Positions 31,901-54,862 of a stretch of 64,000 nt of DNA are shown here, one piece after another (the first letter of the stretch is position 1; each line of letters starts with the position of its first letter). Made by a program: the position numbers and the translations under genes. Origin of the DNA: an uncultured Gammaproteobacteria bacterium (GTDB lineage Bacteria; Patescibacteriota; Patescibacteriia; UBA10025; JAHIVO01); NCBI GenBank assembly GCA_964628855.1, contig CAZVMV010000004.1:5254-69253 (forward strand). Reading direction: 5' to 3'. The notes below the pieces were generated by a model that was not told the origin of the DNA, ran no database searches, and saw nothing but the letters and a program-made list of their open reading frames with translations.

Positions 31901-34900
31901 CCCTGCATATGTACGGCACCGGTACAATCGACGCCAACGACGAAACATTTTATGACTTCTACGTAGATGGCACCGACAATACCGTCACAGTCCAAAATAC
32001 CGGATTTAGTGTTTCCAGGGGTTTCTCAGTTACGGACGGGGAAACGCTATCAATTAATAGTGGTCAGACCGTCACTCATACCGGAAATATTTATCTGCTC
32101 AATACCAGCGGTACGGTATCCGGAGCGGGGACAATGCGGTTCACCGACACTTCCAGCGGCCCGGGTACCGGAGGAACGCTATCTTCAATCGTACGTTATG
32201 ATGCCAGCGCAGGAAATGTCGGCACTTCGACATTTGATGCACGTACCTACGGGAGCGATGTTGAAGCATATTCCAATAGCGCTAACATCCGATCTATTGC
32301 GCTGGCCTCGGGCTCCCAAAATATTACCGGCGACCTAAAAATTATTACCGGCGCCAGCCAAAGTGAGGTCCTGACAGTAAGTGCCGCTGCTAATCCAACC
32401 TTATCAGTCAGGAATATTACCTTTACTACAGGAGGTTCGGCCACACCGGCAATAACCTCTGGCTCGGGCACGTGGACGGCTACCGGGGATGTCAATTTCA
32501 CTAATGGAACATTCACCGCTACGACAGGCAACACCCTGCAAATGAACGGATCAGGAAAATCAATCACCTCTGCTTCACAAAGTTTACAGAACTTTGCCGT
32601 GACTGGCGGCAGTATATCTTCCGCTGATGCCATGGTCGTAGCCGGCACTTTCAGTCTAACTAGCGGTGCCTTTACGCAACATGCCACCAGTAACCTCAGT
32701 GTAGCCCATGACTTCACCTTGCAAAGCGGCACGACATTCACTAAATCGGCGACTAGCGGGAAACTGAAATTCAATGGAGACCTGGTCTATACTGACAATA
32801 ATGCGGTCAAAAAAGACGTCGGGGTAGTGGAAATCGGCGGCTCGCCTGACACGGTCGATCTGGCCAGTGATATGGCCGCCACCTCGGTCACTGTCCTGTC
32901 CGGAGCCAACTCACTGGTTACCAACGGGTATGACGCTGATCTCGGCACGGGCGGTTTGACGGTCAACGGCACGTTGGATGCGACAGATGATGTTGAAACT
33001 GACGGCACGGCCATAAATACGCAAGGAGACGTAACCATTGATGCCGCGGCCACCTTCACTCATGACAATAACGCCACAATAATTTTCGACGCCGCTTCTG
33101 GCACCAATAACCTCATCACAAACGGCAAGCCCCTGTACAACCTCACCATCGATGATGGCGGAGGGAGCCTGGTAGTCGAGGCGGAAGATCCGTTAACAAC
33201 TAATAACAATGTCACTATTACCAATGGCACGCTCGATACAGTGTCCGGGGAAAATAATGCCATCAGTGTGGGCGGCAACTGGACCAACAACGACACCTTC
33301 ACAGTCCGCAGTAGCGTAGTCACATTTAACGGTACTGGCGCGCAAGCTCTGAGCGGCACGATGACCGGCAGCTCCACTTTCAATGAAGTCAATGTCACCA
33401 ATACTGGCGGTACCGTTTCATTAAGCAACGCTTTTGCTGCAACGGGCAACTTCACCATTGGAGCTGGAGCGACTTTCTCCCAGGGGACCAACAACACCAT
33501 GACTTTGACGGGGGACACGGTATTAATTAGCAACACTGGCGCGTTTACAAAAGATGCCGGAAGTGGAATCCTCATTTTGGACGGCGTCTCTGACAACCAG
33601 ACTTTCGAAGATGCAAACGGCACAAAACAAAACCTGGGCAATGTCCAAATCGGCCAGTCACCAGGTAAAACTAAATTAAAGAGTGATTTTGCGGCAACCA
33701 GTTTAACTATTGCCTCTGGAGATACTTTTGAGACTAAGGGCTGGGAAGTCGACCTGTCGGGCGCTCTCGACTGCCAAGGGACTTGCATCCTGGATCTCAC
33801 TGACATTGGCCCTAACAATGAGGGTGACGGCACCATCATTACTCTCGGCGGAAACTGGACCATGTCCGGGACAGGCACTTTCACGCCATCAACCGATTCA
33901 AGGGTTGAACCGGACGGTACTGCAGACCAAACCATCACTACAGGAGGCAAAGCGTTCTGGAACTTCTATGGCAATAATGCGGGAGCGTCGGATGCTGTAG
34001 ACGACATGATTGTTTCGGGCAACCTGACTGTAAATGGCGCCTTGACCGTCAATGACGGCGAGCTTGATCTGGAAACCAACGATCCCACTACAGATATCGC
34101 CGGGGATGTAACCATAAATTCCAACGGCGAACTGAACTCGACAAGCACGGGTACATTTACTGCGGCTGGCGGATGGACAAATGCCGGTACTCTTACCGCC
34201 AATTCAGGAACGATTAAATTTGACGCGCCATCAGGCACGAAGAGTATCAACTCAACCGGGGCTACGACCGCTTCATTCAACAACCTGACCCTGGATGACA
34301 ACGCCGGATCGGCCGTTTTCCAGCAGGGCTCAGCACTGGACGTAAACGGAAACCTGCTGATCACCGGGGGCACGCTGGATACGAACAGCGGATCGAGCTG
34401 GGCTATCACCGTCGGCGGCAACTGGACAAACAACGATACCTTCACGGCCAACTCCGGGACAGTCACGGCAGATGGCGCCTCACAACAAACGTTCAGCGGC
34501 ACCCTTACCGGCTCAACGGGTAAATTTAATAACCTGACAATCACAAATGCATCTGGTTCTGATCCGGACACATCGCCATCAGTAATCTTATCAGGCAATC
34601 TGGAAACGGCCGGCACGTTTACCGCTACGACCGCAAACACAAAATTAAGATTCAATGCCGCCAGTACTTATACCCTGCAAAATATTGACTTCAACGGCCA
34701 GGCTCAGCATACCCGCGTATACCTGCGGAGCTCCTCAGGTGGAAATGCCTGGAACCTGAATTCGGCGGGCACGCGGACCGTCAAGAATACGGACGTGAAA
34801 GATTCGTATGCCTGCGGCCAGCCACCGGATATCGACGGTTCACATGTTTCCAATAAAAATAACGGCGGTAATACATGTTGGAACTTCCAGTCGTTAACAT

Positions 34901-35395: not shown

Positions 35396-35424
35396 TTGCC
35401 AAGCGTCAAAAAGTGTGTTATAAT
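35396..35424 (+). promoter_or_regulatory. sigma70-like extended -10 promoter for the downstream surface-protein operon
   Basis: TTGCCA, 17-nt spacer, then TGTTATAAT. A 9-bp 5'-UTR hairpin AGCGTTTTT/AAAAACGCT lies at 35448-35470. Confidence 0.5.
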
Positions 35425-35521: not shown

Positions 35522-36556
35522 ATGAAGCTTGCCAAAAAGATCAGTGTGGCCATCTATGCGGCGCTTTTTGTATTTACCATGGTATTGCCATGGACCGTCG
35601 CCCAAGCCGCCACCCTAACCACGCCTCGAGATTATCTAAGTCGTGTTGCGGAAAACTTAACCACCGGCGAAGTACACCAAGTGTTCTTTACCACCGCCAC
35701 AGCCGTTTCCGGTGGTGTTGGGGCTAATTCAGTTATCATAGTTTTCCCTGATGGCGATGATGGTAAATGGTGTGCCACTGCAGGTTCTGACCTTACGGTT
35801 TCTGGCATTGCCAACCCAACAGGTGGCAGCGAAAGCGCAACAACCTTGCCGGGATCTTTAGCTGCGGCCTGTACCCAGGGCGCCGGCGCCTCAAGCTTTG
35901 ACACTATCACCGTTTCCAGTGTCAATAATCTTTCAGCTGCGACCAAATATGGCGTCCAAATATCAGACGGCTCAACCGGCAAACTCGGCACTCCAGCCAA
36001 CACCACCACAGGTCTATTAACCATTAAAACAAATAATGGTTCAACTGACGTTGATTCAGCCCAGGCGGCCGTAGACATCATTGCCAATGACCAGGTGTCT
36101 GTTTCTGCTACTGTCCCGCCGAGCATTACCTTTACCTTGAGTGCGAACAGCATCAACCTTGGCACACTTTCTACAGGCGCAGTTGCTAACTCGACGCACA
36201 CCGCCCGGACAGTCACCAATGCCGCAAATGGCTATGTTACCTATGTCTACTCAGACGGTAACTTACGTAATGGAAGCAATACTATCGCCGCTACCACCGG
36301 CACGCTGGCCGCTGGAACCGCCGGATATGGTATTGCCACTTCCGACGCCAGCCAGACAGTAACCCAGGATGCCGCTTGTGGCAGCGCCCCATATAATGTC
36401 ACTGCACTGACCACCTCACAGCAATCGGTTGCTGGCGCGACATCCGGACCCGTAGACGAAACTTCCACGATATGTTATGCCGCGGCCATCGCCTCGGATA
36501 CAGTCGCCGGTGCATACACCCAGACAGTAACCTTCGTAACCGTCGGTCTGTTCTAA
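35522..36556 (+). CDS. secreted protein carrying the same C-terminal domain as the giant protein (WxL-like/CscB-like candidate subunit)
   Basis: Signal peptide ending AQA-A. The last 143 aa align without gaps to the last 143 aa of the giant ORF, with 106 identities by hand count. Ends VTFVTVGLF versus VTYVTVGLY. Confidence 0.85.
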   Translation: MKLAKKISVAIYAALFVFTMVLPWTVAQAATLTTPRDYLSRVAENLTTGEVHQVFFTTATAVSGGVGANSVIIVFPDGDDGKWCATAGSDLTVSGIANPTGGSESATTLPGSLAAACTQGAGASSFDTITVSSVNNLSAATKYGVQISDGSTGKLGTPANTTTGLLTIKTNNGSTDVDSAQAAVDIIANDQVSVSATVPPSITFTLSANSINLGTLSTGAVANSTHTARTVTNAANGYVTYVYSDGNLRNGSNTIAATTGTLAAGTAGYGIATSDASQTVTQDAACGSAPYNVTALTTSQQSVAGATSGPVDETSTICYAAAIASDTVAGAYTQTVTFVTVGLF

Positions 36557-36632
36557 TAAAAACATTTCATTCCTCCGCCAAACGACATTTGGAGGGGAGG
36601 GTAGAATTATTTATTAAATAATCAGTCGTCAT

Positions 36633-37556
36633 ATGGCGAAAAAAATCTCACTCATAGCCATCGCTACCCTGTTCGTGGCTGCCCTGGCTCTGCCACACCA
36701 TGCGGGCGCGTTGACACTAAAGCCAACGTCACGCGAAGTGTTGTTAACGCCGGGTGAAAAAACGGTCACATCAGTTGACCTGGAAAATGAAACACAAAAA
36801 GAAATCCAACTTACGACCCAAGTGGTGAACTTCACCGCAAAAAACGAGACAGGAGAGCCGGCTTTTGATTTTAATGCCACGCCGACTGACATCGCGACCT
36901 GGACCGCACCGGAGATTGGACCATTTACCCTGACGCCGGGCCAGAAACAGACGGTACTGGTGACCTTCAACACCCCTGCCACCGCGACACCGGGTGGGCA
37001 TTACGTCGCCGTCTTCTTTAACGAGGTGCCCAGCAATGACACTACCAAAGTAAATATCGAGTCCAAATTAGGCGCCCTATTCCTGGCCACAGTGAAAGGG
37101 ACATACGCCCAGTCCGGGGAAATCGCCACCTTCACTACTGCAGGGAACAAAGCCTATTTCGACAAGGCTCCGATATCATTCGTCTTCCGTTATTCCAACA
37201 CTGGCGACGTCCACCTGAAACCCACTGGCACATTAACGATCAAGAACATGTGGGGCAAAGTCGTGAAAACCATCACCGTCAACGAAGAGCTGGGCGCGAC
37301 GCTGCCAAACACCTCCCGTGAATATTCCATTGCTGATTGGAAAAACATCGGCAGCGGTTATGGGCAATACACGGCGACCCTGACCCTGAAATCAGGCACA
37401 GTTGAGAACACCAAAACCATACATTTCTGGTTTTTCTCGGGGGTTTCAATGATTGTTATCATTGTCGTTGCAATAATCCTCATCTTGCTCGCAGTCATGC
37501 TTTTGAAAAAGTCCCAAGGGTCCTCAGCCGTTACTCCAAGCAATCCAAAGAAATAA
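36633..37556 (+). CDS. cell-surface protein, signal peptide plus two beta-sandwich domains plus C-terminal TM anchor (DUF916/DUF3324-like, CscA-like)
   Basis: Signal peptide (ALPHHAGA). The L.PGE/Q...V..N pattern and GGHYVAVFF are shared with its paralog. C-terminal helix VSMIVIIVVAIILILLAVML is followed by KKSQG. Confidence 0.8.
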   Translation: MAKKISLIAIATLFVAALALPHHAGALTLKPTSREVLLTPGEKTVTSVDLENETQKEIQLTTQVVNFTAKNETGEPAFDFNATPTDIATWTAPEIGPFTLTPGQKQTVLVTFNTPATATPGGHYVAVFFNEVPSNDTTKVNIESKLGALFLATVKGTYAQSGEIATFTTAGNKAYFDKAPISFVFRYSNTGDVHLKPTGTLTIKNMWGKVVKTITVNEELGATLPNTSREYSIADWKNIGSGYGQYTATLTLKSGTVENTKTIHFWFFSGVSMIVIIVVAIILILLAVMLLKKSQGSSAVTPSNPKK

Positions 37557-37584: not shown

Positions 37585-38586
37585 ATGAGCCACAAAACGG
37601 TTCTAAAAATGATAGTGTTCAGTTTGGCCTTTGGCCTGGCTGTTGCCGCTATTCCCGGAACGGCCAAAGCAATCACCTTGATCCCACCGATGCTTGAATT
37701 TGGATTGACCAAGGGTGAGCCGACAAAAACAACTATCAAAATATTTAATGAAACCGCCTCGCCGGTTGAACTGTATACGGAGGTGAAAAACTTCACAGCC
37801 AGCGGTGATTCTGGGCAGCCTGCGTTTGATTTCAATGATACAGAACCGATTGGCTTCAGTACCTGGGTAACCGTGCCAAAAGGTCCGATCACCGTGAATC
37901 CAGGAGCGCGGTATGAAGTTCCGGTCACCATCAATACACCCTCCGATGCTGACCCGGGCGGGCATTATGCTGCAGTTTTTTTCACGACTTCTCCGCCAGC
38001 TGATGGGCAGGTGCGCATCGCCTCCAAAATCGGTACCTTGCTTCTTGCTCAGGTCAGTGGCGACATCCAGGAAAGCGGTAGCATCACCGAATTCAATACG
38101 GTTAGCAATAAAAAAGGCTTCACCAGGCTACCGGTGAAATATTATACAATATTCAGAAACACCGGGAACATCCACCTACGGCCGACTGGCGCCATCACTA
38201 TCACCAATATGTTCGGCAAGGAGCAGGTGAAGCTAACCTTCAACTCCGCTAATGGCGCCACCCTGCCGAATTCCAGCCGTCGGTACGAGACGGTCTGGGA
38301 AAAACAGTCGGTAAACGAAACAACTGGCAACTTTTGGACTAATTTTTGGAATGAATACTCGAACGAAAAATCAAATTTTGCCATTGGCCGATTCACCGCC
38401 AAGCTAGCGATCACTGCCGGCACTTCAAATGCGATTACGACTGACTCGTCCACGACATTCTGGGTTATCCCGTGGCACATCCTGCTTGTCTGGTTGATTG
38501 TTTTGGTGCTGGCCATCATTATCCTGATCGTCGGGATCAAAAAATACAACCAATGGATTGTAAAAAAATCCCAGGGTACTAAATGA
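37585..38586 (+). CDS. paralogous cell-surface protein with the same architecture (DUF916/DUF3324-like, CscA-like)
   Basis: Signal peptide (GTAKA), shared motifs (FDFND..., GGHYAAVFF, N(T)G(N/D)(I/V)HL(R/K)PTG.(I/L)TI.NMFGK), and a C-terminal TM helix followed by KKYNQWIVKKSQG. Confidence 0.8.
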   Translation: MSHKTVLKMIVFSLAFGLAVAAIPGTAKAITLIPPMLEFGLTKGEPTKTTIKIFNETASPVELYTEVKNFTASGDSGQPAFDFNDTEPIGFSTWVTVPKGPITVNPGARYEVPVTINTPSDADPGGHYAAVFFTTSPPADGQVRIASKIGTLLLAQVSGDIQESGSITEFNTVSNKKGFTRLPVKYYTIFRNTGNIHLRPTGAITITNMFGKEQVKLTFNSANGATLPNSSRRYETVWEKQSVNETTGNFWTNFWNEYSNEKSNFAIGRFTAKLAITAGTSNAITTDSSTTFWVIPWHILLVWLIVLVLAIIILIVGIKKYNQWIVKKSQGTK

Positions 38587-39497
38587 ATGTAAAAAAATCA
38601 GCCCGTTTTTTCGGGCACATATCATTATTGCTGATCATTGTCCCGTTGATCGTCATGATCACGGGATATTCTGTTGTATTAGCCCAGGTATCACAGCAAG
38701 TCGTCATCACGGCCACCGTCCCAGAAAAACCCCCTCTAGAAACACCCGACACAATTGTAATTTTTAAAGGTATTGCCTACCCGTCATCAAACTTGACCAT
38801 CAGTGAAGGCGGAACTGTCCTGTCGTCATTCACCCTAGCTGCCCAAGCCCGTTTTGAAGTAACCTATAAAGTTACGCCAGGGAACCACACATACACGATA
38901 GTCGGCACTGACTCTGACGGCATCCAGGGCCGCACCTCAAACTTCACCCTGACCATGTCGCAGGGGACCACCACTACGATTAGCGGCATTTTTTTAGGGC
39001 CGACCATAACTATAGACAAATCAACAATTACAGCCGGCGAGACGGCCACCTTGTCCGGCACGACGGCTCCGAACAGCTCGGTTAATGTCACGATCAGCAC
39101 TGCGACAAGCGGCACGTCGGCCGCGGCCGGACCGCAGCAAGCCGTACATACAGCCAGTGCCGACAACAACGGGCGCTGGCTTCAGCTGGTCAGGGCCAAT
39201 GACCTGAGTACCGGCCCGTATACAGCCAAAGCCCAAGCAATCGAACCGTCAGCCAATTCAGTTTCGGAATTCAGTAAAACATTGGCCTTTGAAGTGAAGG
39301 GCGGGGCCTCAGACACATGTTCCAACTCTTTGGCTGCCGACATCAACTGTGATACAAAGGTCAACTTGATCGACTTCAGTATTCTTCTTTTTTTCTGGAA
39401 TGCCACAAACCCCACTAATGCACGCGCTGACATCAATCGTGATACGCACGTCAATATCACGGATTTTAGCATCTTACTATTCTATTGGACCGGTTAA
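38583..39497 (+). CDS. dockerin-containing secreted protein (two Ig-like domains plus a C-terminal type-I-like dockerin)
   Basis: The start overlaps the upstream stop (ATGA). The C-terminus carries a duplicated Ca-loop/helix: DINCDTKVNLIDFSILLFFW and DINRDTHVNITDFSILLFYW (DxNxDxxVNxxD pattern). Confidence 0.85.
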   Translation: MNVKKSARFFGHISLLLIIVPLIVMITGYSVVLAQVSQQVVITATVPEKPPLETPDTIVIFKGIAYPSSNLTISEGGTVLSSFTLAAQARFEVTYKVTPGNHTYTIVGTDSDGIQGRTSNFTLTMSQGTTTTISGIFLGPTITIDKSTITAGETATLSGTTAPNSSVNVTISTATSGTSAAAGPQQAVHTASADNNGRWLQLVRANDLSTGPYTAKAQAIEPSANSVSEFSKTLAFEVKGGASDTCSNSLAADINCDTKVNLIDFSILLFFWNATNPTNARADINRDTHVNITDFSILLFYWTG

Positions 39498-39501
39498 TCC
39501 T

Positions 39502-40629
39502 ATGAAAATATTCCGTTATACAATCATATTCATCCTAATCGCTCTTGGCGCTGGAATTGGGACAGCCCATGTGGCGCGGGCAGCCGTGCTATCCGCCTAC
39601 CCGGACCATCGGACAATTTCCCTGGGCGAAACGTTTACTGTTGATATCCGTCTCAATGGCGAACAGCAGGTGATAAACGCAGTTACCACGACCATAGTTT
39701 ACCCCAAGGATCTCCTAGAGGTCGTCAGCATCTCACGAGGCGGGTCATTCCTGACCTTATGGCCGATCGAGCCGACCGTCGATATAAATACCGGCACAAT
39801 TACATTGACCGGCGGCATCCCAAACGGCAGTTATGTGGTTGATGGGAAGATTATTTCGATTACTTTTATGCCGAAAGACAGCGGTGGCGTTGAGATTAAG
39901 TTTGACAATAAGCTGTCCCAAGTTCTACTGAACGACGGCGCAGGCACCCCGGCCCCCTTAACTTTCAATACCGGCATCTATAAAATTGAGGAAAATAATT
40001 TCATTACCGTTAATTCGCCGTCGCATCCTGATGAAAATAAGTGGTATCGCAGCCGGAAAACAGTCTTTACATGGCCGACTAAGAAAAATGCCGAATACAG
40101 CTACACCCTGAGCATCAATCCAGATGATGTTCCGGACGATACGGCCGAACGTACGGCTGGCCAAGTAACATTCGACAATATTGCCGATGGCTTCCATTAT
40201 TTCATTCTTAAAGAAAGGCAGCAAAATAAAACTTGGGAAATAGTGGGTCGGCGACGTGTCCAAATCGACGCCACTGCCCCAGAGCCAATTACGGCCATCA
40301 TCAATCAGGACAACACCGTATTGGTAGGCCAATATTATGTCACTTACAACGCAACTGACGGCACTTCTGGGGTCGATCATGTTGATATTAAGGAAAACTC
40401 AACAACTTACCAAAACATCACCTCCCCCTTCATCTTAAAAAATCAGGATCCGCACAGTTATCTGGTTATTACCGCCTACGACAAGGCCGGCAACTCAACC
40501 AAATGGACTCGCGGGACCCCTCCGACAACCGAAAGTCAACAGACAAAGTACTATTCCGTAATTATTATTGCGGTGATCATGGCCATTTTTACCGCCATAC
40601 TGATTAAATTGCGTCTGCGTCACAGGTAA
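39502..40629 (+). CDS. cohesin domain protein with Ig-like modules and a C-terminal TM anchor
   Basis: ATG at 39502, 4 nt after the dockerin gene stop; the longer ORF from 39400 overlaps that gene. Signal peptide, then the cohesin-like pattern LGETFTVDIRLNGEQQVINAVTTTIVYPKDLLEVVSISRGGSF...GTITLTGGIPNG. SPSHPDENKWY module. C-terminal helix YYSVIIIAVIMAIFTAILI. Confidence 0.8.
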   Translation: MKIFRYTIIFILIALGAGIGTAHVARAAVLSAYPDHRTISLGETFTVDIRLNGEQQVINAVTTTIVYPKDLLEVVSISRGGSFLTLWPIEPTVDINTGTITLTGGIPNGSYVVDGKIISITFMPKDSGGVEIKFDNKLSQVLLNDGAGTPAPLTFNTGIYKIEENNFITVNSPSHPDENKWYRSRKTVFTWPTKKNAEYSYTLSINPDDVPDDTAERTAGQVTFDNIADGFHYFILKERQQNKTWEIVGRRRVQIDATAPEPITAIINQDNTVLVGQYYVTYNATDGTSGVDHVDIKENSTTYQNITSPFILKNQDPHSYLVITAYDKAGNSTKWTRGTPPTTESQQTKYYSVIIIAVIMAIFTAILIKLRLRHR

Positions 40630-40639
40630 ATAATCTTCC

Positions 40640-43075
40640 ATGAAAAGAATAATAGGCATAATTATCTGCACAGCGATAATCATCCTGGCTGCGCCACATC
40701 TGGCTGAAGCGGCCTCATTGGGGATCAGCCCATCCACTAAAACAGTGGAGGTTGGCGACAGTTTCAGTGTCAGCATCAGAGTCAATACCGCAGGCGTTGC
40801 GATCAACTCCGCGCAAGCTACGGTCTCGTATCCCGCCAACCTTTTAGAAGCAACCGGCATTTCATCCCAAGGAATTTTTACATTATGGGCTATTAGCCCT
40901 TCTTATTCGAATGCCACGGGCAAGGCTACGTTTGCAGGAGGCCTGCCAAGCCCCGGATACACCGGCTCTTCCGGAACGGTGATCGGTATCGTCTTCAGGG
41001 CAAAAGCCGCCGGCAAGGCCACAGTCACAATCGGCAGCGCCAGCGTCCTCGCTAATGATGGAATCGGCACCGATGTATTCACTGGTGCAGGATCGGGCAC
41101 ATATACCATAAACACGCCCGCACCTGACACGCCGACCACACCGACTACGCCTACTACCCCTGATAAAAAACTTCCGGCGGCTCCGACTATTTCTTCCACT
41201 ACACACAAGGATCAGACTGCCTGGTACAGTAATAATGCCCCGGGTTTCAGTTGGACGAAGGAGTCAGGCGTTACCGGTTTCAGTACGGCTTTGGATGATA
41301 AGCCAACAGCTTCTCCTGACACAAACCAGGATACAACTGACAACAAACAAACATTCACAGGCACCAAAGATGGGACGTGGTATTTTCACGTACGCGCACA
41401 GAACGGGGACGGCTGGGGACCGTCGTCCCATTTCAAAATTAACATCGACACTACGCCACCGAACCCTTTCACCGTGGAACTCCCCGATGGCGTGCGCACC
41501 ACCAGCCAATCGCCTCGCCTTAATTTTACCGCTACTGACGCGCTCTCTGGCATAAAAAATTATTCATTATCTGTAAATGGCGGGCCAGTCACCACCATTA
41601 ATACTGACGCCACACAACCTTATACTCTTGCCGGATTGGGGAACGGTGAATATTCCATCACTGTAACGGCCAATGATAACGCCGGGAATTCTACCACCAC
41701 ACTTACAACATTTACTATTTATACCGAATCTACCGCCGAACCTAGCACTCCGACCGGCCCAGAAATACCCCTGCCTGGCATAGCCAAATCCATAAATTCA
41801 GTCCTCAAATCAATTGATAAGATCTTGCCACCATCTGTCCAAAAAGTGACTAAAAAGGTCAGCGATACGGTTGAAAATCTCCGCCAGAACCAAGGCGTGA
41901 CCAACACGTTCGACGACGTGATTAAGCCAACGGTGACCACGACGGCCATCGTCACTGCCGTCGGCGTAGCTACCACCAGTTCCGCGCTTCAGCTAACAAA
42001 CCTCCTTTACCTATTCCTTCGCTTCAGCTACCTCTGGATGGCACCGATCCACTTTGGGAAACGCAGGCGGCCATGGGGGATCGTTTTTGACAGCACGACC
42101 GGCCGGCCTGTCCCGCGCACCCTGGTGAGAATCTTTTCCAAAGAATTCAGCAAACTCAAAGAGAGCCAGCTGACCGATGCCGAGGGGAGATTTGGCTTTT
42201 TGATCAATCCCGGGGAATACTTCATTACTGCGGGAAAGGCTGGGTTCACATTCCCTTCGCGTTTTTTACGCACTGCCATTGTCAGCCAATACGATGAAAT
42301 ATACAGGGGCGGGCTTTTCACAGTAGGCCCGAAAGATGATGGGGTAATTTCCATAAATATTCCGCTTGACCCGAAATTGTCTGAAGTGTCAAAAGCACGC
42401 ATGAAATGGCTGCGGATCTTAAACGCCATCGGCCTTATTCTGGAAAAAATAAATACCCCCCTGCTTATTGCCGGCCTCCTTCTGAGCATGCTCACTACAA
42501 TTATTGAACCATGGACTGCCAATTTCATCATTTTGGGGGTTTACGTACTGCTCATTTTCATTAAATCAATTATGGGATTCCTGATCGGGCGGTCATGGGG
42601 TCTGGTTGTGGATGAGGACACGGGCAAGCCGATTGAACTGGCCGTGGTCAGGATTTATGAGGCAAATACCGGAAATATCATGGGAACACGGGTCACCAAC
42701 CAATTGGGCCAGTTCACGTCCTTCATCATGCCTGGTGAATATTACGTGGTCATCCTAAAGGAGGGTTATGAGCCCTTCCGCAGTAAACCGATTACAGTCA
42801 CTAAACGTCGCGGCCTGATCCGTATGAAAGCTGAGCTACTGTCCAAGGATAAGTTGAGAGCGCTGCCAGAGGGGGAGGAAATCATCTATCTGGAGTCTGT
42901 TGACTATCCAAAGAGGACTAAGTCGGCCGTGACGCCGAACGCATCCAAGCAAAAAAACAATCAAACTGCTACCGAAACTAGCCAGGCATCAACGAACGGC
43001 AAGCCAATTAGTAATAAGTCCGTATTCAAGCCGCCGCCTTTGATTGCGGTCCAGAAAAAGAAACGAATGAAATAA
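40640..43075 (+). CDS. cohesin domain protein with a PT linker, Ig-like modules, and a polytopic membrane region containing two carboxypeptidase-regulatory-like beta-sandwich domains
   Basis: Cohesin-like VGDSFSVSIRVNTAGVAINSAQATVSYPANLLEATGISSQG...GKATFAGGLP...IGIVFRAKAAGKATV. Linker PAPDTPTTPTTPTTP. STTHKDQTAWY module. CarboxypepD_reg-like WGIVFDSTTGRPV...AEGRFGF and WGLVVDEDTGKPI...QLGQFTS flanked by TM helices. Confidence 0.85.
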   Translation: MKRIIGIIICTAIIILAAPHLAEAASLGISPSTKTVEVGDSFSVSIRVNTAGVAINSAQATVSYPANLLEATGISSQGIFTLWAISPSYSNATGKATFAGGLPSPGYTGSSGTVIGIVFRAKAAGKATVTIGSASVLANDGIGTDVFTGAGSGTYTINTPAPDTPTTPTTPTTPDKKLPAAPTISSTTHKDQTAWYSNNAPGFSWTKESGVTGFSTALDDKPTASPDTNQDTTDNKQTFTGTKDGTWYFHVRAQNGDGWGPSSHFKINIDTTPPNPFTVELPDGVRTTSQSPRLNFTATDALSGIKNYSLSVNGGPVTTINTDATQPYTLAGLGNGEYSITVTANDNAGNSTTTLTTFTIYTESTAEPSTPTGPEIPLPGIAKSINSVLKSIDKILPPSVQKVTKKVSDTVENLRQNQGVTNTFDDVIKPTVTTTAIVTAVGVATTSSALQLTNLLYLFLRFSYLWMAPIHFGKRRRPWGIVFDSTTGRPVPRTLVRIFSKEFSKLKESQLTDAEGRFGFLINPGEYFITAGKAGFTFPSRFLRTAIVSQYDEIYRGGLFTVGPKDDGVISINIPLDPKLSEVSKARMKWLRILNAIGLILEKINTPLLIAGLLLSMLTTIIEPWTANFIILGVYVLLIFIKSIMGFLIGRSWGLVVDEDTGKPIELAVVRIYEANTGNIMGTRVTNQLGQFTSFIMPGEYYVVILKEGYEPFRSKPITVTKRRGLIRMKAELLSKDKLRALPEGEEIIYLESVDYPKRTKSAVTPNASKQKNNQTATETSQASTNGKPISNKSVFKPPPLIAVQKKKRMK

Positions 43076-43077
43076 AA

Positions 43078-43105
43078 AATATCCCCCCAGCGATGGGGGG
43101 ATATT
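43078..43105. terminator. bidirectional terminator between the convergent surface-protein operon and the T4P operon
   Basis: AATATCCCCCC-AGCGAT-GGGGGGATATT hairpin (11 bp) with an A-run upstream and a T-rich stretch downstream. Confidence 0.65.
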
Positions 43106-43120
43106 TGTAATTGTGTCAGG

Positions 43121-43594
43121 CTATCTGGTCACGCTTATTGACGTAACTCCTTGTTCGCCATCCGGTGCATTCACGGTTACCCGACCGGTTGTGGGATCTT
43201 TCATGACCGTATACCGGGTATTATATGTACTGCAGTTAGACGATGCTGTCCCGGTCTTTGGGTCAACTGGCATAGCAGTCAGATAAATACCCGTGGAACC
43301 CACTAAATAGGGGCATAAATTGACCGTATTAGGTGCACCAGAGTCTGTAATGGTATAAAGGCTTGTCGTTATGACTGACGGCACTAACCCCTGATTGTCC
43401 ACTGCATACTGGTGGATAGCGTTTAATAATGCGTTTACGTCATTCCAGCGCTGGGCATTACGCGCCTGGGCAAACTGGCGCCCTGGATTGATCGCGACGA
43501 TAACGATCGCGGCCAAAATGCCGATAATGCCGATCACTACCAGGAGTTCGAGGAGAGTGAAGCCCCGACCCTTTGTATGTGCATGTCCTGCCAT
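43121..43594 (-). CDS. type IV pilin (major pilin candidate, PilA-like)
   Basis: Class III signal: MAGHAHTKGRG/FTLLELLVVIGIIGILAAIV (G-1, F+1, E+5). A C-terminal Cys pair is present. It has its own upstream promoter-like element and an AAGGA RBS. Confidence 0.9.
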   Translation of the reverse strand: MAGHAHTKGRGFTLLELLVVIGIIGILAAIVIVAINPGRQFAQARNAQRWNDVNALLNAIHQYAVDNQGLVPSVITTSLYTITDSGAPNTVNLCPYLVGSTGIYLTAMPVDPKTGTASSNCSTYNTRYTVMKDPTTGRVTVNAPDGEQGVTSISVTR

Positions 43595-43649
43595 ATGTTA
43601 TTTCCTTGTGATTAAGGGGGTAACCCTTTTTTTAATTATTTATATATAA

Positions 43650-43678
43650 ATTATATCACAACTTAGCCGCCTTAATAA
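43650..43678 (-). promoter_or_regulatory. candidate extended -10 promoter for the pilin gene
   Basis: On the minus strand: TTATTA, 17-nt spacer, TGATATAAT. It lies between the pilM stop and the pilin start. Confidence 0.35.
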
Positions 43679-43689
43679 ACCTTGCTTTC

Positions 43690-44934
43690 TCAAGGTTTCA
43701 TTCTAATAAAATAAACCGCGATAAACACTAACACCAGAAAACCAAAGACTCCGAGCAATGCTAACCCGCGTTTATTGCGTGCTACCCAGCTACCATGAAT
43801 TAACTGACCAGTTGGTTTGGCTGCGGGCTTTTTTTCTGGCATGCGTTTAACTGGGTTTTCTTTTGTCTCGGCATGTCGTAGCAGATTTATACCGACGCCC
43901 AACCTTTTTTCGTTTAGGCCGCGCTTGGCCAGTCCCATCACTGTCGCATAAAGTATCGGTGCCTGGGTATTAAATAGCTTGTCGTTTTTTTGAACGGATT
44001 CAAGCGGATTGCCGAGAACTGCATGCACGCGAACTTGTTTTGATAAATATTGGACTAGGCCCGGCAAGAGACTTGTGCCGCCACACAAAATCAACTGCTT
44101 AACGGCGCGGCCTGTATTTTTTTGGTACAAATTTATGATCTTATTTATTGCCTCAATTACCTTTGCCAAGATGGGCTCAATAGCCTGCGCTGTTGGGGCT
44201 GATAACAGGCCGGTTTTTTTCTTCATAGACTCGGCCTCTATTTTTGACAATGACAATTTGCCAGCCAGGGACTCGGTTATTTGTTCGCCCGCAATCGGAA
44301 TGTTCTCAGAAAAATGTATAGCCTGCTGGTCATAAACCGTAATTATTGTCGTCCGGGCGCCGCAATCTATTATTAATACCGGATCAGTTGCCTGCGGGCT
44401 GACCAGCGCACGCGCCAGGGACGCTGCCTCGGACTCAAGTGCCTCGAGCGTAAAACCGGCGCGGCTGATCACTTCCTGATAAGACCTGACAATATCCTTT
44501 TGGCAGGCGACATACAGCACATCCTGCACATTTTCATCTTTTCTGACTGCCTGATAATCATGAATGACCTGATCCCAAAACAAAGGTAACATTTCCTCTG
44601 CTTCATATTGAATAGCTTCTCCGAGCTGTTGGTCAGAAACGACGGAAGGAAGCCGGAACAAATGTGTATATGATTGTGATTCGGGCAATGATGCGACTAC
44701 CGATTTAGTCGTAAAATGCCCATATCCAGGCAATGTTCCAGTCTCGATTATTTTTGATATTAGTAACTGTTGTTCAATTATTCGTCCATTAGTAACAATG
44801 CCCTGGGGCAACTCTAAACGGCGGTAAGCCACTACCCGCAACTCTCCGCCTTTCTCCTTGAGTTCAAGCATTTCGATGGAGAAGTCGGAAATATCTATAC
44901 CGAGGGCATGTTTGGAAAAAAATGACATAAACAT
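43690..44934 (-). CDS. pilM: type IV pilus assembly protein PilM with a C-terminal TM extension (PilM-PilN-like fusion)
   Basis: Actin-like ATPase pattern GIDISDFSIE...IIDCGARTT...LCGGTSLLPGL. The C-terminal helix LALLGVFGFLVLVFIAVYFI follows a basic linker. Confidence 0.85.
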   Translation of the reverse strand: MFMSFFSKHALGIDISDFSIEMLELKEKGGELRVVAYRRLELPQGIVTNGRIIEQQLLISKIIETGTLPGYGHFTTKSVVASLPESQSYTHLFRLPSVVSDQQLGEAIQYEAEEMLPLFWDQVIHDYQAVRKDENVQDVLYVACQKDIVRSYQEVISRAGFTLEALESEAASLARALVSPQATDPVLIIDCGARTTIITVYDQQAIHFSENIPIAGEQITESLAGKLSLSKIEAESMKKKTGLLSAPTAQAIEPILAKVIEAINKIINLYQKNTGRAVKQLILCGGTSLLPGLVQYLSKQVRVHAVLGNPLESVQKNDKLFNTQAPILYATVMGLAKRGLNEKRLGVGINLLRHAETKENPVKRMPEKKPAAKPTGQLIHGSWVARNKRGLALLGVFGFLVLVFIAVYFIRMKP

Positions 44935-44978
44935 ATCAATTCAACTTTTATTGTACCACCAATCAATAGCAGGCAACA

Positions 44979-45380
44979 CTAATTATTTTCCTGCCACGAA
45001 ACCAGGGTCAATCCGGCTGGAGCAATAGTCACTCGGCCTGTAAATTGACGCTGCACATCACCAATATTGGCAGATACGGTTACTATACGGTCGGCGGGAA
45101 TCGGCGTCGTGACAGAGACGACAGTACATGTGCCCGGGGCTACATTCAGGATTGTCCCCCCAGAATAAGCACCATCCCTCATCAGACGTAAATACGCCTC
45201 CTGAAGGCAACTATACGCCGCCTGTTCTGCTTGGGCTGATTGTTGACGAACCAGGCTAGTATCCGTTTCCGTGATGCTCAATCCGTTCATGGACAAGGCA
45301 ATGGCCAGTGTCACGGCCGAAATAATTATTAAGGCAATGAGGGCAATATATCCTTTTTGGTTTATTTGATAAAATTTCAT
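44979..45380 (-). CDS. pilin-like/PilX-like protein with a non-canonical N-terminal hydrophobic helix
   Basis: N-terminus MKFYQINQKGYIALIALIIISAVTLAIALS has a G followed by a hydrophobic helix but no E+5. Located within the pilin gene block. Confidence 0.5.
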   Translation of the reverse strand: MKFYQINQKGYIALIALIIISAVTLAIALSMNGLSITETDTSLVRQQSAQAEQAAYSCLQEAYLRLMRDGAYSGGTILNVAPGTCTVVSVTTPIPADRIVTVSANIGDVQRQFTGRVTIAPAGLTLVSWQENN

Positions 45381-45382
45381 GG

Positions 45383-45907
45383 CTAACGATCTAGTAATTC
45401 TATGGATGTATCGAAATCATTCTTGAACTCCCACTCGCTTCGGCCGCTCGGATTGACAGTTTCCAGAGTAAACTGTAATCGGACTTGTTTTGACTTTCCG
45501 TTAGATGATGAAATATTACTGAAACTAATGCCAGTAACTTTCACGGAGTCTGAATTCAGGGCTACCGCTGTACCAAGACCTTCTTTATAAGTAAGCTGGT
45601 TGCCACTAAGACTAAATACCGTGGGGTTCAATGGCGCGCTTTTCATCACCAGCGTCAAGGTTGTCCCAGTTGTGCTGACGAGCGGTGCGGTAATGTCGTT
45701 TGCCTGGCGCGCCGCTTGGCTGAACTTTTCTATTATATAACGGCCGTTCTGCTCAACATCTTGGACGGCAAAAGCTTTGGTCCGGCTATTTATGATGTTC
45801 CAGGCAAAACTGGTGGCCATGACCAGCACGGCGGCTACCAGGGTAATGTAAATGGACAGCTCAATGAGCGTCATTCCATCCTGCCTTTTTATAAAACCAT
45901 TATTCAT
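45383..45907 (-). CDS. minor (pseudo)pilin with a prepilin-type N-terminal cleavage/methylation motif
   Basis: MNNGFIKRQDG/MTLIELSIYITLVAAVLV (G-1, E+5). ATG 45907 lies 2 nt downstream of the upstream gene stop. The longer ORF from 46003 would overlap that gene by 104 nt. Confidence 0.75.
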   Translation of the reverse strand: MNNGFIKRQDGMTLIELSIYITLVAAVLVMATSFAWNIINSRTKAFAVQDVEQNGRYIIEKFSQAARQANDITAPLVSTTGTTLTLVMKSAPLNPTVFSLSGNQLTYKEGLGTAVALNSDSVKVTGISFSNISSSNGKSKQVRLQFTLETVNPSGRSEWEFKNDFDTSIELLDR

Positions 45908-47801
45908 AATTGACCGTGATATCTGATAAGGTCGGCGTTGACGCTCCAGTCGAGGTAAAATAGGCCCGATACTGGATCCAGCGCGTGTTGGGATTATCGG
46001 CAATTATGTCTCCCGGAGTCGTAAAATATGTAGCAGCTGTGCCATCAGGGCCGACCCATGTTGCACTCGACAGCCCGATTTGCGTCGCAGCTGTACGCGC
46101 CTGGTATTGCAATGTTGTCCCGACGGGAACAGTCGCGGTCCATGTGAGGTAATTGTCCACGGTTGCAGCACTACCTGTATCAAAAGCTGAGGAGATAAAA
46201 TCGCCGCTCAGACTGTATCCAGACGAAAGCGTAAAATAATATCCGCCCACATCCGATTCGACAAATGGCGTCCAGGTCCCACCGCTATCAGTCGACCTTG
46301 TTAAAAATGACGTCGTCCCATTATATGTTAAATTATTATAAACCGCCGAGTTTGTTGTATCTATGCGGCGGACGCGAAAAAAATTAGAGGCGTTATTCTG
46401 GGCTGACGAAAATACATAGATACGATAGGTAGTGCCCGCAGTCAATGTGCGCGGCGTGACAAATGAGAAGCTGAATGGTCCGTAGTTAACTCCAATAGCG
46501 GCTGAACTTGCCAGCACACCCTGTTCAACCAAAGATGCGGCGGAGACATCATACAGGGCCACCATTAAATCACCGACTGGTATGCCGATTTTTTTCGCCT
46601 CGAAAGTTACTTGGGTGGCTGTCACGGTACTGCTAGGGGTAAATTGTTCACCTACGTATCCGCCGCTGAATATCCGCTCAGGATTATTCTCGGTCAGACT
46701 GATATAAGGGTTACCCTCAAACGATCCGTCATTAAAACCAAGCATATATACTGGCTGATTGTTATCCACCGACCATGTCCCGCCACTATTTAAAGATCTG
46801 AGGACATTTGATTGAGTATCTGGATTGTTATTCAGCGGGATGAGGGAGTTGAGCGGAGTGGTAACGCGCAAGGCGATAAAACGATTGACGGCAATCGTGC
46901 CCGACTCGTATTGTACGACCAGATGATATGTGGTTCCGGCAGTAATGGCCACGGCAGGCGATAGAGAAATTGTCTGCCAACCGGTAGATGTCGCCTGTAA
47001 GGTTGTTGAGCCCAACCATACACCTGAGGGATTTCCTGCCGTATTGCCCTGGAGCCCATATCGATAAGTTGGACTTGTCCCATTTTCGGTGTGCAGATAC
47101 ACCCTAATTGTATTAACCGACTTGCTACTTTGCGCAGTAAAACGGAATGAAGTACGATACGCGGCATTAGTCAGGTTTTGCGAAGCAATTGACGTATCTA
47201 CTTTAAACTGATTACCAAGCATGCCGCCACCAGATGATGCCAAAACTAACTCCCCGCCTGAAGCATTTGCGGAAACTACCTGATTCTTAGTGCCAGCGTC
47301 AAATTCAGCCTGGAGTGTCTGTGTCCAGCGACGGCTCTTCCAATTGGCCATATAGCTGTTCACAATGACGCTGGAAGGCCGGTTCGGGCGTGGCGCCCAA
47401 GTGACTTGGGACGTGACCAATTTTGTGTCAAGATCTGGCGTCCCGCCGACAGTAACAATGTTTCCGCTAACGTCGCGATTGACGCTGGCTACAGTCACTG
47501 ACCGTGAAAAAACGCCCAGCGAATCGGCCGAACCATTATATTGCCAAATATTTGTGGATGCCGACAATCCATGTGTGCCAATTGTTAGATATTTCCAACC
47601 ACGGGACGCCAAGCTCTTGCTGGCCTCGATGCCTTCTTGGGCCAGTGCGGCCGCCCGTGTCCGTTGGCCGCCTTCCTGATTCGCCAAATGAGAATCCAAA
47701 GTCAGAAACATTGTACTGGCCACCACCAACACAAAAATTCCCATTGCTACCAATAGTTCAAGCAAACTCTGTCCGGATTGGTTGGGTGATTTATTGGACA
47801 T
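45900..47801 (-). CDS. large (about 630-aa) minor pilin, candidate tip adhesin
   Basis: MSNKSPNQSG/QSLLELLVAMGIFVLVVAS (G-1, E+5), followed by about 600 aa of beta-rich sequence. The ORF is also open from ATG 47876, but that would give a 35-aa leader and an 86-nt overlap. Confidence 0.75.
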   Translation of the reverse strand: MSNKSPNQSGQSLLELLVAMGIFVLVVASTMFLTLDSHLANQEGGQRTRAAALAQEGIEASKSLASRGWKYLTIGTHGLSASTNIWQYNGSADSLGVFSRSVTVASVNRDVSGNIVTVGGTPDLDTKLVTSQVTWAPRPNRPSSVIVNSYMANWKSRRWTQTLQAEFDAGTKNQVVSANASGGELVLASSGGGMLGNQFKVDTSIASQNLTNAAYRTSFRFTAQSSKSVNTIRVYLHTENGTSPTYRYGLQGNTAGNPSGVWLGSTTLQATSTGWQTISLSPAVAITAGTTYHLVVQYESGTIAVNRFIALRVTTPLNSLIPLNNNPDTQSNVLRSLNSGGTWSVDNNQPVYMLGFNDGSFEGNPYISLTENNPERIFSGGYVGEQFTPSSTVTATQVTFEAKKIGIPVGDLMVALYDVSAASLVEQGVLASSAAIGVNYGPFSFSFVTPRTLTAGTTYRIYVFSSAQNNASNFFRVRRIDTTNSAVYNNLTYNGTTSFLTRSTDSGGTWTPFVESDVGGYYFTLSSGYSLSGDFISSAFDTGSAATVDNYLTWTATVPVGTTLQYQARTAATQIGLSSATWVGPDGTAATYFTTPGDIIADNPNTRWIQYRAYFTSTGASTPTLSDITVNYE

Positions 47802-48252
47802 TGATAATGCCCCGCGCATTAATGGTAATGGCAGTTGACTCGTTATTTGCCGACTGGAGGGTGACAGTGCCGACATTTGAAGTCTCTCCCTTCACCCTAG
47901 TAAAAACAATATCCGACCCCGCAGTCGTACTGACTGTTATGTTTTGGGGAGTAGTAAATGTTTCATTGGTCGGATCGCCAGCATTATATGCCGCGCCTGC
48001 AAATACAATATATTTATGGGCCTCCAAGTGTACACCCCAAGCTGACCATTGTTTTGACCCCATGGCCATTCCCTGGGCACGACGTAGAGTAGATGCCATT
48101 TCCTGCGTCGTATTGTCCAGGTTTGAACTGACCTGGAAAGATTGGTAAAACGGGATTGCTAGGCCGGCCAGAAGCACTAAAACGGCGATGGCCATCATCA
48201 ATTCGATAAACGAAAATCCCCCTACCTGGTTTGAATATCTTATCCAATGCAT
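47791..48252 (-). CDS. minor pilin (GspH/FimT-like)
   Basis: MHWIRYSNQVGG/FSFIELMMAIAVLVLLAGLAIP (G-1, F+1, E+5). 153 aa. Confidence 0.75.
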   Translation of the reverse strand: MHWIRYSNQVGGFSFIELMMAIAVLVLLAGLAIPFYQSFQVSSNLDNTTQEMASTLRRAQGMAMGSKQWSAWGVHLEAHKYIVFAGAAYNAGDPTNETFTTPQNITVSTTAGSDIVFTRVKGETSNVGTVTLQSANNESTAITINARGIINVQ

Positions 48253-48254
48253 AG

Positions 48255-49478: not shown

Positions 49479-49484
49479 AATTTT

Positions 49485-51176: not shown

Positions 51177-51179
51177 ATC

Positions 51180-51554: not shown

Positions 51555-51558
51555 TATT

Positions 51559-52362: not shown

Positions 52363-52453
52363 ATATTTCTTTCGGAAAATTATTCTATTTCATTTGTAAA
52401 ATAACACGAAAAATCATTTTTGTCAAACTAATTCAACGCCTTTCCTTCACGCA

Positions 52454-52482
52454 TTGACATTTCTCAAATAATATGCTACAAT
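52454..52482 (+). promoter_or_regulatory. sigma70-like extended -10 promoter upstream of pilT
   Basis: TTGACA, 17-nt spacer, then TGCTACAAT. It implies a leader of about 160 nt before ATG 52647. Confidence 0.45.
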
Positions 52483-52646
52483 TACTTTAGAAACAAAAAC
52501 TAAAAATAAAACAATGGTTAAACATTCAGCAATAACGCTGAATAAGGCAGCGCTCTCATCTTTAGGGCAGACCATGTATTACCGAAAAAAGAAAAACAGT
52601 CACGTCTTACTCAATATCATCGAGCGTTTTTTCTCCTTGCGTACCT

Positions 52647-54471: not shown

Positions 54472-54494
54472 ACAACCATACTTTTTTCAACACT

Positions 54495-54857: not shown

Positions 54858-54862
54858 AAAAT

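Follow-up and report, generated by a model that had tools for sequence, protein, structure and literature searches.

A dockerin protein and two cohesin proteins at the 3′ end of a probable Pam-type pilus operon in Patescibacteria: a candidate anchor for a donor-strand pilus

The window analysed here, i.e., the whole stretch of 64,000 nucleotides (nt) from contig CAZVMV010000004.1 of an uncultured member of the Patescibacteriota (assembly GCA_964628855.1), carries a tightly packed run of genes on its + strand that ends with a gene for one dockerin protein and, behind it, genes for two cohesin proteins. These are designated P1 (dockerin protein, 304 amino acids (aa), 38583–39497), P2 (cohesin protein 1, 375 aa, 39502–40629) and P3 (cohesin protein 2, 811 aa, 40640–43075), and they are the only dockerin (n = 1) and cohesins (n = 2) within the 64 kb. 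Upstream of them lie a giant open reading frame (ORF) encoding 8137 aa (10912–35325), a gene encoding 344 aa (35522–36556) and two genes encoding 307 aa (36633–37556) and 333 aa (37585–38586), all on the + strand. The junctions within the triad are those given in a first-pass annotation of this DNA: the TGA of the 333-aa gene overlaps the ATG of P1 (ATGA, 38583–38586), the spacer between P1 and P2 is 4 nt and that between P2 and P3 is 10 nt. The longest ORF covering P2 starts at 39400 inside P1, and because this start overlaps the P1 gene, translation of P2 is likely to begin at the ATG at 39502. A + strand promoter-like site with the elements TTGCCA and TATAAT, a 17-nt spacer and an extended TG (35396–35424; 11 of 12 consensus matches, a consensus match only) is located upstream of the 344-aa gene, and a strong bidirectional intrinsic-terminator-like hairpin with a T-run (43077–43106) closes the operon and is shared with a convergent type IV pilin gene.

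P1 consists of a predicted signal peptide (aa 1–34) with an A-x-A-type site (VLA/Q), a conserved N-terminal strand QVSQQVVITATVPEK (aa 35–49; nt 38685–38729), two immunoglobulin (Ig)/fibronectin type III (FnIII) domains (aa 57–137 and aa 154–238) and a type I dockerin (aa 252–304; nt 39336–39494). The dockerin scores above threshold against the Pfam family Dockerin_1 (PF00404; E = 4.4e-7, 30.4 bits with a cut-off of 22.9, aa 252–298), and a PF00404 match is precomputed for nearly all P1 orthologues. Its segments DINCDTKVNLID-FSILLFFW and DINRDTHVNITD-FSILLFYW represent a tandem 12-residue calcium loop, each followed by a helix; counted by eye, 16 of 20 residues are identical between the repeats DINCDTKVNLIDFSILLFFW and DINRDTHVNITDFSILLFYW. 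In an alignment of 30 orthologues the positions 1, 3, 5, 9 and 12 of the calcium loops, occupied by D, N, D, N/D and D, are (nearly) invariant in both repeats, Cys246 and Cys256 are nearly invariant as well, and the dockerin helices share an unusually hydrophobic invariant face, DFSI(L/M)LF(Y)W. The AlphaFold model of P1 (predicted local distance difference test (pLDDT) 83) places these helices at aa 262–270 and aa 292–303 and shows both Ig/FnIII domains with confidence. Among sequences of the PDB the best matches of P1 are almost all cellulosomal dockerins, each of them weak (E about 0.05–1), and the fold matches of the Ig/FnIII domains are generic tandem FnIII/Ig proteins including RbmA (E ~1e-5). 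As a side observation, the tandem Ig unit of P1 (profile positions ~51–230) recurs in 10–46 copies in giant proteins of ~1,500–7,300 aa of a metagenome library (proteins P0186–P0200 and others), and because of this recurrence the Ig module of P1 also builds long fibres.

P2 is composed of a signal peptide, a cohesin (aa ~25–165; nt 39574–39996), two Ig-like modules (aa 172–337; nt 40015–40512) and a single C-terminal transmembrane (TM) helix (aa 348–374; nt 40543–40623) followed by a basic tail. P3 likewise opens with a signal peptide and a cohesin (aa ~24–160; nt 40709–41119), which are followed by a Pro/Thr linker, two Ig-like modules (aa ~185–365) and a polytopic region. Both proteins thus contain a single cohesin, and a multi-cohesin scaffoldin is absent. 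Neither P2 nor P3 matched the Pfam cohesin family PF00963 at E ≤ 1, a result that speaks against the cohesin assignment when taken for itself, and single-sequence searches of PDB sequences with P2 and P3 returned noise only. The cohesin fold is nevertheless established despite this miss because orthologues match PF00963 and the modelled fold agrees with it: 22 of 29 aligned P2 orthologues match PF00963 at E ≤ 0.01 (best E = 9e-8), and the AlphaFold model of P2, which was built on the 29-orthologue alignment (pLDDT 89.3), resembles dozens of solved cohesins of types I, II and III in Foldseek with target-normalised TM-scores of 0.70–0.78 and a root-mean-square deviation of about 3 Å over about 145 residues. 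The top structural match is the cohesin plus FN3 module of C. perfringens GH84C (E = 1.7e-11). Moreover, the P2 family profile found the ScaB cohesin 4ums among PDB sequences (E = 0.012), and several of the 59 P2 homologues are named “cohesin domain-containing protein” by NCBI; where a source is named, these are proteins of Patescibacteria, of the Parcubacteria group, of Kerfeldbacteria or of Uhrbacteria. Of the check by hidden Markov models (HMM) that had been suggested for the triad, the dockerin half was therefore positive on P1 itself, and the cohesin half was negative on P2 and P3 and is overruled by the 22 of 29 orthologues and the fold.

The cohesin of P3 was assigned through its paralogy with P2 by sequence identity; of the two cohesin proteins, P2 is the one with a structural model. 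P2 and P3 share 30% identity over 337 aa (E = 1e-37), and this alignment takes in the cohesin together with both Ig-like modules and contains the motifs S.(S/T)H.D....WY and IxIDxTxP that are common to the Ig-like modules of both proteins. A shared Ig-like module had been proposed from these motifs before, and as judged from this similarity P2 and P3 are paralogues that both open with a cohesin. Taken together, the cohesin and dockerin identities of the modules of the triad can be regarded as practically certain. The first-pass annotation had also stated that both cohesin proteins end in TM anchors. This holds for P2; in P3 the clear hydrophobic segments (aa 597–652; nt 42428–42595) are internal, and ~160 residues follow C-terminally, including a CarboxypepD_reg-like domain. 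A weaker hydrophobic segment, read from the sequence, is located near aa 435–465 and is followed by KRRR. Over the whole C-terminal part of P3 (41930–43075, aa ~430–811) the hydrophobic segments are interleaved with two CarboxypepD_reg/transthyretin-like beta-sandwich domains (best match aa 654–723; nt 42599–42808), with a Lys-rich tail at the end. According to the positive-inside rule both beta-sandwich domains may be cytoplasmic. This type of tail is present in 17 of 87 loci.

The presence of cohesin and dockerin modules brings to mind a small cellulosome-like complex for the degradation of polysaccharides, and this presence is all that speaks for it. Domain searches found no carbohydrate-active enzyme (CAZyme) domain, i.e., no glycoside hydrolase or other CAZyme domain, and no carbohydrate-binding module (CBM) in any protein of the operon or in the related loci examined, and the dockerin is carried by a pilin-derived Ig protein as shown below. 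This reading has next to no probability left and is rejected as effectively refuted by the lack of a CAZyme in the operon, in agreement with the first-pass annotation, which had stated that the system is not a cellulosome.

The genes upstream of P1 point to a different type of structure. The 344-aa protein has a signal peptide, an N-terminal beta-sandwich, a linker strand QVSVSATVPPS (about aa 190–200) and a C-terminal domain (aa 201–344) that matches the NCBIfam family CPR_Pam_pilin_C (NF058581) over the full profile length (E = 3.1e-10, 40.3 bits). The same family is matched by 35 of 36 pilin-like proteins of related loci (best E = 1e-28), and PamT is matched by 16 of the 36; a search of PDB sequences with the pilin family profile gave no match. 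NF058581 stems from the Pam pilus, a filament type that was characterised by cryo-electron microscopy of filaments of Candidatus Mycosynbacter amalyticus (Troman et al., bioRxiv 10.64898/2026.03.03.709456; NF058581, NF058579). The pilins of the cassette share the layout of the Pam pilins, in which a linker donor strand joins the N-terminal beta-sandwich to a C-terminal acceptor domain of truncated Ig-like type. Downstream of the pilin gene, the 76-nt spacer 36557–36632 contains an imperfect GC-rich inverted repeat CCTCCGCCAAACGACATTTGGAGGGGAGG that is absent from the terminator-scan list and might represent an attenuator keeping pilin transcripts above those of the accessory genes.

The giant protein ends with a Pam-pilin C-terminal (acceptor) domain, which occupies its last ~140 aa (nt ~34894–35322) and matches NF058581 with E = 1.1e-7 and 32 bits (cut-off 55), covering positions 2–148 of the 148 profile positions. 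A donor strand in front of this domain is missing, and the middle of the protein is a very long repetitive Thr/Ser/Gly-rich region. At its N-terminus it carries an HTH_17/MerR domain (aa 32–83; nt 11005–11160; 38 bits, cut-off 27) and thereafter a single hydrophobic segment (aa 123–154; nt 11278–11373) that ends in an A-x-A-like site (IVQA/E). The fusion of a cytoplasmic-type helix-turn-helix (HTH) domain to a giant extracellular fibre (10912–11373) is an odd combination; a HTH_17 match is also recorded, faintly, for the giants of two related loci (L001 and L004), and the region may serve as a regulator tethered to the membrane, or may be a leader removed by cleavage.

The two genes between the pilin and P1 encode membrane-anchored proteins that were designated chaperone-like. 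In the first (307 aa), a signal peptide and DUF916/WxLIP-like Ig domains precede a C-terminal TM helix within aa 261–297; the second (333 aa) has a signal peptide and a C-terminal TM helix within aa 289–326. Their own sequence matches are weak (WxLIP_PGBD with 18–21 bits, below the Pfam threshold, and PapD_N with E = 0.021), and matches to DUF916 are below threshold as well. At the level of the family the earlier label of these genes as WxL/DUF916-like is borne out, since WxLIP_PGBD is matched by 24 of 38 family members (best E = 1e-6) and a search of PDB sequences with the family profile picks up EfmWxLIP1 (E ~0.01). The Pam pilus employs two PapD/FimC-like chaperones, PamC and PamD, with C-terminal TM helices, and a tip subunit, PamT (bioRxiv 10.64898/2026.03.03.709456). 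The cassette resembles it in having two chaperone-like proteins with C-terminal TM helices and a signal peptide on all components, and it differs in its tip, which is a giant of 3,400–9,700 aa compared with the single-domain PamT. It is very likely that the region from 35.4 to 43.1 kb together with the giant gene constitutes a Pam-type pilus operon.

Whether the triad belongs to this operon was also addressed by comparison with other genomes. In a scan with one genome per species, relatives of P1 were found to be encoded by at least 568 Patescibacteria species representatives, with record labels including Patescibacteria, Kerfeldbacteria, Uhrbacteria, Parcubacteria/Paceibacterota, Giovannonibacteria, Nealsonbacteria and Moraniibacteriota; a few implausible taxon labels among them are probably due to automatic labelling or mis-binned contigs. 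Four loci with P2 homologues all contain, in this order, genes for a giant protein (3,400–9,700 aa), a ~340-aa protein, one or two proteins of ~310–330 aa, a ~300-aa Dockerin_1 protein and cohesin proteins, whereas their genes beyond this block are not the same. Iterated profiles built from the proteins of the window were then run on all ORFs of 87 sequences (the window and 86 loci), and synteny was counted in 83 non-redundant loci. Downstream, a cohesin ORF starts within 400 nt of the dockerin gene in 75 of the 78 loci that have enough sequence on this side; upstream, a chaperone-like ORF ends within 400 nt of it in 60 of 77 loci, and an ORF carrying the pilin C-terminal domain is present in 45 of 60 loci. 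The order of the cassette is giant, pilin(s), chaperone-like, P1-like dockerin and one to five cohesin genes, all on the same strand and with unrelated flanks. The triad is tied to the upstream genes because this order is kept in about 80 Patescibacteria loci with differing flanks, which supports the proposed connection to the WxL/DUF916-like and giant genes more strongly than the tight junctions do. The triad is thus the 3′ end of a conserved cassette and not a free-standing unit. Moreover, the “minimal triad” with two cohesins is specific to the lineage of the window: there is normally one dockerin gene per cassette, and the number of cohesin genes is two in 46 loci, three in 24, four in five, five in two and one in a single locus.

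In cassettes of the Uhrbacteria type additional ORFs were observed (L004 4527–4907 and 9675–10028; L005/L006 4403–5839, 5924–6349 and 10001–11539) that encode four-helix-bundle proteins (Pfam 23S_rRNA_IVP/bAvd) and one PDDEXK_3 protein and that are placed between genes of the cassette or joined in frame to the 5′ ends of these genes. Mobile or selfish elements that inserted here, or what is left of a diversity-generating retroelement, are conceivable origins.

The relation of P1 to the pilins is seen from a short strand. In the pilins a strand D-D-x-V-x-V-(S/T)-A-x-V-x-P is found immediately N-terminal of the acceptor domain, and it is absent from the giants; in short pilins of ~210 aa it directly follows the signal peptide. 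In P1 and its orthologues the corresponding strand [VI]-x-[VI]-[TS]-A-x-V-P (QVVITATVP in the window) immediately follows the conserved A-x-A-type site, with Ala44 and Val46 invariant and the other strand positions conservatively fixed among the 30 orthologues. Exactly these residues (aa 35–49) are unstructured in the AlphaFold model (pLDDT < 50), as would be expected if the strand takes on its fold only within a partner. The strand of P1 scored higher against the strand of the pilin of the same locus than in shuffled pairings (17.2 vs 15.8 ± 0.56, p = 0.008), an effect that is small and determined with a few mis-extracted strand registers. The strongest evidence is provided by natural fusions. 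In five loci the dockerin proteins are 441–461 aa long and contain a complete pilin N-terminal domain plus linker strand (L037 293–1675, L041 9452–10786, L046 9446–10768, L048 2209–3534 and L054 9404–10759), the pilin N-terminal domain being recognised in all five with profile E-values from 3e-63 to 5e-74. By BLASTP, four of them, i.e., all but the one on the short contig L037, are 37–50% identical to the pilin of the same locus (E 1e-21 to 1e-50), and the alignment extends through the strand (..SNDHVVISATV vs ..SDDQVVVSATI), beyond which Ig-Ig-dockerin replaces the acceptor domain. Because of these pilin-Ig-Ig-dockerin fusions, which are the key evidence, and of the homology of the strands, P1 is considered a pilin-derived subunit, and it probably acts as a strand donor. 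The suggestion of the first-pass annotation that a cohesin-dockerin pair was co-opted for a surface structure can thereby be sharpened to a donor-strand pilus of the Pam type with P1 as a pilin-derived subunit.

P1 could also be an independent Ig surface protein that is held by the cohesins or by an uncleaved helix and is merely co-transcribed with the pilus genes, in which case the strand motif would be a juxtamembrane linker. The long N-terminal hydrophobic segment, modelled by AlphaFold as one helix over aa 7–35, fits such a protein, as does the shortness of the motif, which is made of common beta-strand residues and shows a modest excess over shuffles. This is very unlikely in view of the fusions, which put a whole pilin N-terminal domain and strand ahead of Ig-Ig-dockerin, of the invariance of Ala44 and Val46 with an A-x-A-type site conserved right before the motif, and of the short 210-aa pilins, in which the same strand comes right after the signal peptide.

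In chaperone-usher pili of the Pap/Fim type, the tip adhesins PapG and FimH contain an acceptor pilin domain and lack a donor strand, PapH acts as terminator, and such donor-strand fibres grow at the base. The cassette appears to follow the same logic, in that the tip only accepts, the shaft donates and accepts, and the last subunit ends growth at the cell-proximal side. The giant protein would accordingly be placed at the distal tip as an adhesin because it has an acceptor domain and lacks a donor strand. The linker strand of each pilin would insert into the acceptor domain of the previous subunit, and its own acceptor domain would be offered to the next one to form the shaft, with the membrane-tethered DUF916/WxLIP-like chaperones holding the subunits until strand exchange. 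Mature P1, with the strand V-x-V-(S/T)-A-x-V-P at its N-terminus following signal-peptide cleavage, would cap the proximal end of the fibre; since it can donate a strand and cannot accept one, it would be the chain terminator at the cell-proximal end. Finally, the calcium-binding dockerin of P1 would dock into the cohesin of P2 and/or P3 and thereby fasten the pilus non-covalently to the cytoplasmic membrane. The cassette differs from Pap/Fim pili in several respects: there is no outer membrane or usher, the chaperones are membrane-tethered, the donor strand of the pilin is an internal linker, and the terminator is proposed to be fixed by a dockerin-cohesin pair.

In the Pam pilus the tether is PamR, a protein of 32.8 kDa whose two RbmA-like FnIII domains are preceded by an additional N-terminal strand and followed by a C-terminal TM helix (bioRxiv 10.64898/2026.03.03.709456). 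P1 resembles it as a putative tether of roughly 300 aa with an N-terminal strand and two FnIII-like domains that would end the fibre, and it differs at the C-terminus, which is a dockerin in P1 and a TM helix in PamR (QHN43270.1, compared by description); in addition, the cassette contains one to five membrane cohesin proteins. The function of PamR would therefore be split into an adaptor (P1) and a socket (P2/P3). The lineages differ as well, as the Pam paper covers mainly Saccharimonadia and Microgenomatia and does not mention cohesin or dockerin in text or supplement (bioRxiv 10.64898/2026.03.03.709456), whereas the cassette is found in Kerfeldbacteria, Uhrbacteria, Parcubacteria/Paceibacterota and others. 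We lean, by a narrow preference, towards the model as a whole, with P1 as the strand-donating terminator and counterpart of PamR whose dockerin plugs into the membrane cohesins.

The cohesin proteins might, instead of holding the pilus, serve as a transient assembly platform comparable to an usher or a nucleation site, with the finished fibre being released or held in another way. Pam pili were described as easily untethered in appearance, and a dedicated trans-envelope machinery was not found for them (bioRxiv 10.64898/2026.03.03.709456), which would fit a platform, as would the several cohesin paralogues per locus and the large polytopic region of P3, which looks like more than a passive anchor. 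Such a role is nevertheless unlikely: a subunit with a strand and without an acceptor domain stops and does not start the growth of a donor-strand fibre that grows at the base, cohesin-dockerin pairs are generally very tight, and no evidence for a release of the fibre was obtained.

The binding of the P1 dockerin to the cohesin of P2 or P3 is itself a prediction, which is supported at the genomic level by gene adjacency in 75 of 78 loci and which we regard as probable. The cohesins might instead serve other dockerin clients, or the dockerin of P1 might bind elsewhere, e.g., to surfaces of host or sister cells. In favour of this, the search with the P1 profile yielded 3,529 cluster representatives at E ≤ 1e-10, and many of these thousands of relatives are short proteins (~230–900 aa) matching through the dockerin end of the profile. 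The dockerin census of the window’s genome, moreover, covers 64 kb only, and a stand-alone dockerin-domain protein, SEML1_0315, is essential in the saccharibacterium Southlakia epibionticum (Cell 2023). As experimental evidence on the cassette SEML1_0315 was rejected, as it is a stand-alone gene of 927 aa with unrelated neighbours and does not represent an orthologue within a cassette of this kind. A use of the modules with partners outside the cassette is quite unlikely given that the dockerin gene is adjacent to a cohesin gene in nearly all loci with tight or overlapping junctions, that there is normally a single dockerin gene per cassette, and that strong conservation extends jointly to the dockerin repeats and the cohesin core.

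Several observations weigh against the proposed anchoring of a pilus by P1, P2 and P3. The pilin of the window scores 40.3 bits and thus stays below the NCBIfam cut-off of 55, and the resemblance of P1 to RbmA is a generic tandem-FnIII match, one among hundreds. The leader of P1 is hydrophobic over a long span (aa 6–37 in a hydropathy scan) and could be an uncleaved anchor, its cleavage being placed from the −3/−1 pattern alone. The N-terminal HTH domain and TM segment of the giant protein are awkward for a free tip subunit unless they are cleaved off. Neither the two to five cohesin paralogues nor the polytopic tail of P3 are accounted for by the model. Furthermore, the profiles picked up no chaperone or pilin upstream of the dockerin gene in ~15 distant loci, which means that the connection with a pilus does not hold everywhere or that the profiles lacked breadth.

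Known uses of cohesin-dockerin pairs can be compared with the proposed one. In cellulosome anchoring the type II dockerin of CipA binds into cohesins of the cell-bound proteins SdbA and OlpB. The cassette is similar in that a dockerin inserted into the cohesin of a cell-bound protein would hold a large extracellular assembly, and the modules themselves agree, with the canonical duplicated calcium loop plus helix in P1 and the matching cohesin fold in P2. It differs in the absence of enzymes, CBM and a multi-cohesin scaffoldin, in its cargo, which is a donor-strand pilus, and in its anchor, which is a TM helix and not SLH or sortase. The best structural matches are the non-cellulosomal C. perfringens GH84C/toxin complexes (PDB 2w1n, 2jh2, 2vo8) and the cohesin 2xdh of Archaeoglobus fulgidus, and P2 shares with the C. 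perfringens pairs the arrangement of a cohesin followed by FN3. Such non-cellulosomal pairs are a precedent for the use of these modules outside of cellulose degradation; however, those of C. perfringens join secreted enzymes or toxins together and not a pilus subunit to a membrane protein.

Similarities also exist to the WxL/Csc clusters of Firmicutes, in which WxLIP consists of DUF916, DUF3324 and a TM helix and a WxLIP strand is predicted to complete the WxL domain (PMC10599100). In both systems the same C-terminal domain occurs in a small and in a large protein, and there is a membrane-anchored protein with two Ig domains for which strand insertion is predicted. A domain search found no WxL domain in the pilin or the giant protein of the window, and the Firmicute clusters lack cohesin and dockerin. 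The two types of cluster are analogous and possibly distantly related.

The surroundings of the cassette contain further envelope-related genes. A type IV pilus gene set adjoins it on the − and + strands (43121–53696), the nearest gene being convergent, so that two different fibre systems are located side by side in the window. By sequence reading this set comprises pilin-like, PilM-like, prepilin-like and PilC-like (407 aa) proteins, PilB-like (563 aa) and PilT-like (349 aa, + strand) ATPases, and a response regulator together with a histidine kinase. Further downstream (54429–55642 and 57940–60778), receiver-domain ORFs and Wzy_C proteins were found, i.e., three consecutive stand-alone receiver-domain (response-regulator-like) ORFs of 123–142 aa, likewise identified by reading the sequence, and a pair of neighbouring membrane proteins that resemble O-antigen ligases (Wzy_C). 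Upstream of the giant gene (3283–5850 and 6738–8130) are a P-type cation ATPase and PspC/LiaF-like envelope-stress genes. The ATPase consists of an E1-E2 ATPase with Cation_ATPase N- and C-terminal domains and is possibly a Ca2+ pump; if it exports calcium, its position close to a dockerin system that depends on calcium may be a coincidence.

With regard to earlier knowledge, the dockerin and cohesin names in NCBI records of orthologues and the Pam pilus preprint are already known. A literature search for cohesin or dockerin in combination with pilus, Pam, donor strands or surface fibres in the Candidate Phyla Radiation (CPR)/Patescibacteria found no paper linking them, and a preprint on giant genes of Omnitrophota, which describes dockerin-type giant proteins, was set aside as having no bearing on the CPR cassette.

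The ultra-small bacteria of the CPR account for a large share of bacterial diversity and live attached to host cells, and little is known about the way in which they assemble and retain the fibres used for attachment. The Pam pilus is known since 2026 from one cultivated saccharibacterium, and other CPR lineages widely carry a related operon. In the lineages with the cassette described here, a cohesin-dockerin pair would stand in place of the membrane tether and a giant adhesin would be at the tip. If this is true, cohesin-dockerin pairs would have a new role, i.e., anchoring of a pilus to the membrane in cells without an outer membrane, and hundreds of entries named “dockerin type I repeat-containing protein” or “cohesin domain-containing protein” would gain a concrete function. 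It is a conceivable though doubtful extension that a large part of the CPR uses giant-tipped donor-strand pili held by a calcium-dependent plug and socket and not by a covalent or transmembrane anchor, with the cohesin paralogues as alternative sockets. In this extended reading P3, with its polytopic region, could relay pilus load or host contact to the cell interior, or permit a regulated release or exchange of the fibre, and the pair would be the first of its type in pilus biogenesis or mechanical anchoring. The Pam pilus, the WxL clusters of Firmicutes and the cassette would, in the same reading, be versions of one widespread donor-strand fibre system of monoderm bacteria.

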